From Escherichia phage PhiR12_3: a stretch of 61,979 bases of DNA. The notes under the pieces were generated by a model. It searched no databases. It saw nothing but the letters and a program-made list of their open reading frames with translations, and was not told where the DNA came from. How positions within the stretch are numbered: the first letter of the stretch is position 1; each line of letters begins with the position of its first letter. Made by a program: the position numbers and the translations under genes. Shown one piece after another: positions 4,290-4,973 of the stretch. The stretch is from the sequence record PV340552.1; one strand, given 5' to 3'.

Positions 4290-4660
4290 ATGCGCATTTT
4301 TAAAAACGCCTGGTTTGAGCGACTTGCACGCAAAACAAAATATCCGACCAATCACTGCGCGAAATTGTTAAACAGGCTGATAACGGGCTTATCTCAGCAA
4401 ACCTGGGTAACGGCGTTATCAAGCAACGTCTGCCACGAGTCGGTGGCGGCAAATCTGGCGGTTATCGCACAATCATTTTCTATCGCGTCGGCACAAGGGC
4501 CTTTTTCGTATATGCATACGCAAAAAATGAACGTGAAAATATAACCGCTACTGAGGAAAGTGCATTTCGGAAGGTGGCTCCTCACGTACTCAATCTAACA
4601 GATGAACAACTGGCACAACTGATTCTACAGGGTCAGTTTACGGAGGTACCCAATGAGTAA
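4290..4660 (+). pseudogene. Frameshifted RelE/ParE-superfamily (HigB-like) toxin gene
   Basis: Frame A gives MRIFKNAWFERLARKTK... then runs out of family register; frame B gives ISDQSLREIVKQADNGLISANLGNGVIKQRLPRVGGGKSGGYRTIIFYRVGTRAFFVYAYAKNERENI...; frames join at A-tract near 4340; stop overlaps antitoxin start (ATGAGTAA). Confidence 0.65.
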
Positions 4661-4973
4661 AAATTACCGCAGTGATGCGCTTGCATCCGTACATGAAATG
4701 ATGGAATCGCTTCATGATATCGGCGCAGTAACGAAACAGACTATGCGAGAATTCGATGAACTCTGCCTGCAACCAGCACCTTCAATGTCTCCTGAAAGAA
4801 TCCGGGAACTCCGTGAGCGTGAACATCTGTCACAATCCGTCTTTGCCAGATACATGAATGTCAGTAAAAACCTGATATCTGACTGGGAACGCGGAGTGAA
4901 ACGCCCTGGTGGTCCCGCCCTGCGACTTCTTTCCGTTATTGAAAAAAACGGGATTCAGGCCATAAATGTTTGA
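4653..4973 (+). CDS. HTH-type antitoxin (HigA/XRE-like) paired with the HigB-like toxin
   Basis: 106 aa; C-terminal HTH (LSQSVFARYMNVSKNLISDWERGVKRPGGPALRLL); start overlaps toxin stop. Confidence 0.7.
   Translation: MSKNYRSDALASVHEMMESLHDIGAVTKQTMREFDELCLQPAPSMSPERIRELREREHLSQSVFARYMNVSKNLISDWERGVKRPGGPALRLLSVIEKNGIQAINV

Follow-up and report, generated by a model that had tools for sequence, protein, structure and literature searches.

A probably decaying higBA2-type module in a Stx-phage-like lambdoid prophage: a toxin pseudogene beside an intact antitoxin

The window analysed here (the whole stretch of DNA, 61,979 nucleotides long) is a lambdoid prophage or phage similar to Stx phages and about 62 kb in size, in which an intact antitoxin gene is preceded by a toxin gene that can only be read in two frames. 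The question raised by this locus is what such a break in the toxin gene means. A preliminary description, made from the sequence, had recognized a HigB/RelE-type toxin split by a single-base frameshift in an A-tract, and had left open whether it was a decaying toxin-antitoxin (TA) pair, a sequencing error in a homopolymer, or a slippage-prone site. The evidence presented below points to the first of these, with a probability of roughly 0.9: a decaying higBA2-type module whose toxin has become a pseudogene by an inherited deletion of one A, and whose antitoxin has been left as an orphan. The coordinates of the features discussed are collected in Table 1.

Direct translation from the ATG at 4290 keeps the family register for codons 1-17 (MRIFKNAWFERLARKTK), past which this frame is out of register and reaches a stop at 4542-4544, giving 84 aa in total. 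The frame from 4292, which is the -1 frame, encodes KISDQSLREIVKQADNGLISANLGNGVIKQRLPRVGGGKSGGYRTIIFYRVGTRAFFVYAYAKNERENITATEESAFRKVAPHVLNLTDEQLAQLILQGQFTEVPNE; its product contains KISDQSLREIVKQADNGLISANLGNGVIKQRLPRVGGGKSGGYRTIIFYRVGTRAFFVYAYAKNERENITATEES and has the C-terminus TEVPNE*, and the TAA at 4658-4660 ends the toxin. In tblastn searches, residues 15-123 of an intact homologue match 4331-4657 in one frame with 99% identity, and residues 1-34 match 4290-4391 in a different frame. The comparison with intact homologues that had been proposed in the preliminary description gives the nature of the break: the intact alleles of strains SCU-104 and 2013C-3033 read GCACGC-AAAAA-C-AAAA-TAT, whereas the window and strain ML35 read GCACGC-AAAA-C-AAAA-TAT. 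The intact allele with five As (A5) is translated as CGC AAA AAC AAA ATA (R K N K I, continuing S-D), and the alignment indicates that the lesion consists of the loss of one A from this tract, in codons 15-16, leaving four (A4). The A-tract had been correctly identified as the junction, but the string GCAAAACAAAATATCC is located at 4330-4345, slightly to the left of the region around 4337-4350 where it had been placed. Similarly, one extra A does restore the full-length frame, as had been claimed, but not the wild-type protein, because Leu12 occupies the position of an invariant Phe.

Table 1. Features of the locus and its surroundings, in window positions unless a related locus is named
Feature	Positions	Strand	Remarks
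Toxin pseudogene, 5' part	4290..4340	+	codons 1-17, original frame, MRIFKNAWFERLARKTK; carries Leu12 (C4323)
Toxin pseudogene, 3' part	4337..4660	+	residues 16-123 of intact protein, -1 frame
A4 tract, site of 1-nt deletion	4332..4335	+	alignment with intact alleles and 18-locus alignment
Antitoxin gene, 106 aa	4653..4973	+	intact; N-terminal ~45 residues, then C-terminal HTH_3, HigA2-like
Shine-Dalgarno GGAGG	4642..4646	+	6 nt 5' of antitoxin ATG; read from sequence
15-bp perfect palindrome TAACACTATGTGTTA (TAACAC-TAT-GTGTTA)	4253..4267		23 nt upstream of toxin ATG
Crossover-containing interval	4352..4574 (about)		segment identities and variable-site table
ORF6N-domain gene	3276-3947	-	
C4 antisense RNA	4001-4085	-	Rfam, 75 bits
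IsrK	4112-4186	-	Rfam, 74 bits
c4-a1b1 target element	4147-4199	-	Rfam; upstream of ORF6N-domain gene
DUF4145-domain protein	5202-5948	+	E 4e-9; weak PADLOC PD-T7-4 match, E 9e-4
sok antisense RNA	20993-21167	+	118 bits
sRNA STnc100	25474-25690	+	149 bits
RefSeq fragment, 85 aa	L018 1530-1787		NC_018658.1, O104:H4 2011C-3493
RefSeq fragment, 68 aa	L019 1581-1787		AST198
RefSeq fragment, 112 aa	L003 3123-3461		ML35; non-canonical start inferred ATT

The assignment of the toxin to a HigB/RelE-type family has been borne out. The frame-restored protein matches Pfam PF06296, a family titled 'RelE toxin of RelE/RelB', with 156 bits (cut-off 27) over positions 1-120 of 120 (E 5.7e-46), a match that chance would not produce. 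A profile built from 43 homologues finds a single match among solved structures, Vibrio cholerae HigB-2 (E 9e-5). The AlphaFold2 model of an intact homologue with 98% identity (P0001; pLDDT 85) is predicted to have a RelE/HigB2-like fold, its top PDB matches in Foldseek all being V. cholerae HigB2 (probability 1.0, TM 0.51-0.61). Toxins of PF06296, for which the names HigB2, RelE and StbE are all in use, are described as mRNases that depend on the ribosome, and their genes stand first in the pair (PMC11980606, Table 1). No NCBIfam model matches the toxin, and PADLOC holds no toxin model for it and returns only generic helix-turn-helix (HTH) matches for the antitoxin.

In the window, the PF06296 domain is split over two frames instead of occupying a single uninterrupted ORF of ~123 aa. 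Since this split results from the 1-nt deletion at 4332-4335, the locus is best read from its sequence as a pseudogene of a family member and not as a functional member. A database search found 1,924 homologues of the toxin, and the best 120 of these, from which the lengths were taken, are nearly all proteins of 123-129 aa that cover the whole query. The normal state of the family is an intact single ORF, and not the short N-terminal ORF that had been considered as an alternative.

Translation of this allele by standard rules cannot produce a full-length toxin. The reading frame of the toxin contains no ATG, GTG or TTG before the GTG at 4574, from which only 28 aa would be made, so a truncated toxin would have no conventional initiation. 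The production of an N-terminally truncated toxin from an internal start was considered separately and has been rejected for the window on the basis of this first start codon; such a product is also disfavoured because it would lack the N-terminus, where conservation within the family is highest. Coordinate mapping indicates that the codon chosen by PGAP as the start of the corresponding fragment of ML35 is ATT in that strain and ACT in the window.

In 43 diverse homologues, K5, N6, A7, W8, F9, R11, F12 and R14 are invariant, and codons 1-17 correspond to strand beta1 and helix alpha1 in the AlphaFold2 model. The window departs from this motif at one residue, with Leu12 (CTT, C4323) in the place of the Phe present in 43/43 aligned homologues, and keeps the remaining ones. 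Apart from the deletion and F12L, the toxin frame of the window is open and 99% identical to intact toxins, which suggests that the inactivation is recent, or that the right arm of the locus belonged until recently to an intact gene. Neither the toxin nor the antitoxin has a second copy in the 62-kb window.

The distribution of the two alleles has been studied in several collections. When 5,426 complete E. coli genomes were typed with 47/48-mers, designed to force a 28-base megablast word across the tract, A4 was detected in 28 of them, among which are ML35, FORC and NCCP strains and the outbreak lineage O104:H4, and A5 in eight; every listed genome of the O104:H4 lineage carries A4. An exact-pattern scan of IMG/VR yielded 14 loci, divided equally between A4 (7) and A5 (7). 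The TA region had no match at the megablast level among 50,697 deposited phage genomes (INPHARED), nor was any obtained among the GTDB species-representative genomes in an exact-pattern DNA scan, and the literature search returned no paper on the specific A4 allele. When the window was aligned with 17 related loci, the A4 tract was found to be perfectly linked to A4351, present in 10/10 A4 loci versus 0/8 A5 loci (which carry G), and C4256 was present in all A4 loci. The window holds a frameshift haplotype of four markers (C4256, C4323, A4 and A4351); C4323, A4351 and the four-marker combination are absent from all eight intact alleles. Because of the perfect linkage of A4 to A4351, these alignments indicate that the A4 allele has a single origin and is inherited, without sign of switching.

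Further decay is observed in the relatives of the window. The O104:H4-like group (L004, L007, L008 and L010; RefSeq NC_018658) has suffered a second 1-nt deletion, at T4575, and shares with the window the substitution F12L at an invariant residue, while the ML35-like group exhibits E89A at a nearly invariant one. In strain NMBU-W12E19 (O10:H32; L020 from 1646, NZ_CP042892.1), an IS66-family element is inserted in the A4 toxin pseudogene, so that neither the 3' portion of the toxin nor the antitoxin is present at that site. Other lesions are independent of the A4 tract: the locus L017 is A5, yet it carries a 6-nt deletion together with the T4575 deletion; the paralogue type P0014 (85% identical), which comprises 73 sequences, has gained a G (+G) within a G run around codon 33; and P0009 holds a local double frameshift. 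According to these sequences, toxin loss is recurrent and independent across this TA family of E. coli prophages. The view of the locus as a decaying TA pair has therefore gained support from the inherited A4 allele, the lesions in sister lineages and the intact antitoxin.

Several additional observations concern these relatives. Gene callers read the +G paralogue P0014 as a chimeric ORF of 128 aa, and its 105-aa antitoxin is intact. This paralogue is encoded at 3001-3387 of L021 (a Logan contig of SRR30325388), within the nin/Q region of a different lambdoid prophage. In ML35 and O104:H4 (L003 3822-4505 and L018 2210-2893, respectively), a toxin gene of the Doc (death-on-curing) family comes after the antitoxin, on the other strand, accompanied by a small ORF of 59 aa; this second TA-like pair is absent from the window.

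The antitoxin gene, which had been described as intact and overlapping the toxin stop, is confirmed in both respects. Its product matches Pfam HTH_3 (E 3.5e-9), and its best PDB match is V. cholerae HigA-2 (E 1e-7), with an alignment that covers residues 44-99 only; ahead of the HTH there is a segment of ~45 residues, an arrangement also seen in HigA2. The ATG at 4653 overlaps the toxin stop at 4658-4660 (ATGAGTAA), and this toxin-first order, with an overlapping HTH (Xre-type) antitoxin, is that of higBA-type modules. An identical protein accompanies the intact toxins of the IMG/VR loci L009 and L011. As judged from its position, the GGAGG at 4642-4646 would permit translation of the antitoxin uncoupled from the broken toxin ORF.

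The retention of this gene admits an adaptive explanation, in which prophages repeatedly discard a costly toxin and keep the antitoxin under selection, either as a counter-defence or anti-addiction factor that disarms HigB2-type modules (abortive-infection or addiction systems) of the host or of competing prophages and plasmids, or as a repressor of a new target. Orphan antitoxin-like counter-defence genes are known in phages (PMC11825919), and anti-addiction roles of antitoxins have been discussed (PMC10790755). Within the E. coli prophage family, five or more independent lesions have inactivated the toxin, and the antitoxin, which is preceded by a Shine-Dalgarno sequence of its own, is intact in every locus inspected (18/18 aligned loci and three paralogue loci). 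However, divergence since the lesion is very small, so that an intact ORF of 106 codons would be expected under neutrality too, and the intactness of the antitoxin is weak evidence of selection. Moreover, toxin loss is favoured by selection anyway, which is sufficient alone to generate the asymmetry between the two genes, and the window contains no second toxin copy. Selection for the antitoxin is thus considered unlikely as the explanation of this locus, and ordinary decay of the toxin is preferred.

Upstream of the toxin gene, the palindrome at 4253-4267, which may overlap a -10 region, is the candidate operator to which the HTH antitoxin would bind. It is the single match in the 62-kb window, where 0.09 would be expected by chance, and a diverged paralogue, whose flanks are otherwise unalignable, has kept a 19-nt core (TGTAACACTATGTGTTATA) in its upstream region. 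A scan with the sigma-70 consensus gave no strong promoter on the + strand upstream of the toxin, so the assignment of the promoter is tentative. The C/T polymorphism at 4256 falls within this palindrome. In all 10 loci with a disabled toxin, C4256 makes the palindrome perfect; in all eight with an intact toxin, T4256 yields TAATAC and an imperfect palindrome, and changes CACTAT into TACTAT, which is more similar to a -10 element. This difference may reflect simple linkage or a different regulation.

The window is a recombinant, with a left arm from the A4 lineage, a right arm similar to L009 and L011, and a crossover inside the toxin gene. Over 3500-4352 it is 99.7-100% identical to the A4 lineage (ML35-like, AST198, NMBU-W12E19 and L008), while its identity to L009 and L011 is 73-85% over 3500-4200 and 96.7% over 4200-4352. 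From 4352 to 6800, it is 99-100% identical to these two intact-toxin loci, and its antitoxin segment (4652-4975) is only ~86% identical to the antitoxin of the A4 lineage. From the distribution of the markers, the frameshift entered the window with the left arm of the crossover.

This structure bears directly on the suspicion that the real genome is A5, with an intact toxin, and that the homopolymer was miscalled during sequencing or assembly. A single-base difference in a homopolymer is a classic type of error, and the right arm of the window is 99-100% identical to intact-toxin loci. Nevertheless, the deletion is accompanied by the linked C4256, C4323 and A4351, of which the last two are absent from intact alleles, and the left flank (3500-4352) is that of the A4 lineage, with only 73-85% identity to L009 and L011 over 3500-4200. 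Since a miscall in a genome similar to L009 or L011 would not import these markers together with a foreign left flank, such an error is regarded as virtually excluded. Furthermore, 28 genomes that were finished independently and seven viral contigs have the identical A4, and a run of four or five bases is short for a systematic miscall. The A4 call in the window rests on this haplotype and population evidence, and the homopolymer error put forward in the preliminary description is rejected on these grounds in favour of an inherited deletion.

A different possibility is that the toxin is still made at a low, but not zero, dose by recoding, through -1 ribosomal frameshifting or transcriptional slippage at CAAAACAAAAT. 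The tRNA-Lys positioned on AAA 4338-4340 could re-pair perfectly at 4337-4339 and enter the toxin frame, which in the window remains open up to 4660, and rare slippage by -1 at C-AAA-A is conceivable. However, the zero frame (CGC AAA ACA AAA TAT) contains no heptamer of the form X XXY YYZ, and allows only the single-tRNA re-pairing on A-AAA. Programmed frameshifting was judged by the presence of a stimulatory RNA structure 5-9 nt downstream, but the RNA from 4341 to 4430 is no more structured than its shuffles (z -0.21), with its sole hairpin ~35 nt downstream. A run of four As is far too short for slippage of the RNA polymerase. In addition, the frameshift at T4575 places the largest group of A4 carriers (O104:H4-like) beyond rescue by a single slip, and the two-frame arrangement is limited to one haplotype in which further lesions follow, in contrast to homologues that are almost all single ORFs. 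Recoding is hence a very improbable source of toxin at this locus.

That the toxin is switched off and on within populations by slipped-strand mispairing between A4 and A5 has next to no likelihood: both alleles do circulate in E. coli prophages, but in the 18 loci the allele shows perfect linkage to a SNP only 16-19 nt from it (4351), the listed O104:H4-lineage genomes are all A4, A4 lineages have acquired additional irreversible lesions, and known contingency tracts are much longer, usually of seven or more bases. The idea of a slippage-prone or switching site consequently found no support in a tract of four or five As that is linked to a neighbouring SNP and has neither a heptamer nor a structure.

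The genetic context of the module is that of an accessory region. The first 20 kb of the window are 99.6% identical to E. coli G1/2, G6/7 and G8 over 87% of their length, and 96% identical to Stx2a phages. The TA module lies between a leftward unit that comprises an ORF6N-domain gene, a C4 antisense RNA and IsrK (3276-4199), and the DUF4145 gene. The leftward unit shows a sigma-70 promoter match of 11/12 at 4222-4193 and a terminator at 4140-4117; it is a c4/IsrK antirepressor control module of the P1/Gifsy type, is divergent from the TA promoter, and has a second copy at 13593-13780 on the - strand. The DUF4145 gene, directly 3' of the antitoxin, overlaps an ORF of 100 aa (4994-5296, - strand) for which no family match was obtained, and may be a defence-type accessory gene. 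The presence of a sok RNA implies a hok/sok type I module, so that the prophage would carry two or more TA systems that differ in type.

According to the preferred reading, that of a decaying module with an inherited A4 deletion, a toxin-first higBA2-type pair of type II is carried as accessory genes in the early-left region of a lambdoid prophage similar to Stx phages. With one A missing from the A5 tract, translation from ATG 4290 departs from the family frame after 17 residues and ends at 4544. This lesion arose once, has been inherited, and has spread among lambdoid prophages by recombination. The promoter and operator of the operon may still drive transcription; ribosomes would then terminate at 4544, and translation of the antitoxin would start separately, at the Shine-Dalgarno sequence in front of it. 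The antitoxin has probably been retained as an orphan HTH repressor with autoregulation of the promoter, and it could neutralise related HigB2-type toxins in trans, in an anti-addiction or counter-defence role.

One practical consequence concerns annotation. The broken toxin is entered in RefSeq/PGAP under the name 'type II toxin-antitoxin system RelE/ParE family toxin' and is not flagged as a pseudogene (the fragments are listed in Table 1), so TA censuses based on annotation count a dead toxin as live. Besides, because the crossover falls inside the conserved toxin gene, the locus provides a clean marker of mosaic recombination in lambdoid prophages. Both the family and the phenomenon were already known, this being a case of ordinary toxin decay with antitoxin retention. 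Its scientific weight is small, as one more example in a well-known TA family.

Among characterized systems, HigB2-HigA2 of V. cholerae (higBA-2; PDB 5JAA, 5JA8 and 8A0X) is the one to which the module is compared, as it likewise consists of overlapping genes with the toxin first. HigB2 is the sole solved relative of the toxin by sequence and by fold, and HigA2 has the same layout as the antitoxin, with an N-terminal segment and a C-terminal HTH. However, the toxin shares only ~20% identity with HigB2, and the N-terminal region of the antitoxin has no detectable sequence similarity to that of HigA2. Moreover, higBA-2 is located in a superintegron cassette, whereas the locus described here belongs to a lambdoid prophage and its toxin is a pseudogene.

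Much closer are the intact E. coli alleles (WP_148711987.1 from SCU-104, WP_106894428.1 from an Stx1c prophage of 2013C-3033, L009 and L011), whose toxin DNA is 96-99% identical and which occupy the same site beside the ORF6N/IsrK/C4 module. They differ from the window in having A5, a full toxin of 123 aa and Phe12, in contrast to A4 and Leu12. The loci of O104:H4 (2011C-3493 and relatives), ML35, FORC and NCCP strains, on the other hand, share with the window the A4 deletion and the left-flank haplotype, but hold another type of antitoxin, of 105 aa and with ~86% DNA identity to that of the window, which is followed by a Doc-family toxin gene instead of the DUF4145 gene.

Finally, the loss or breakage of a toxin whose antitoxin is retained is reported to be frequent both in E. 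coli, where orphan antitoxins abound (PMC10790755), and in Klebsiella (PMC7192599). With respect to the orphan antitoxins and degraded chromosomal TA modules of Enterobacteriaceae, nothing essential differs in the window, which represents one traceable instance of them, with a dated lesion and a mapped junction.
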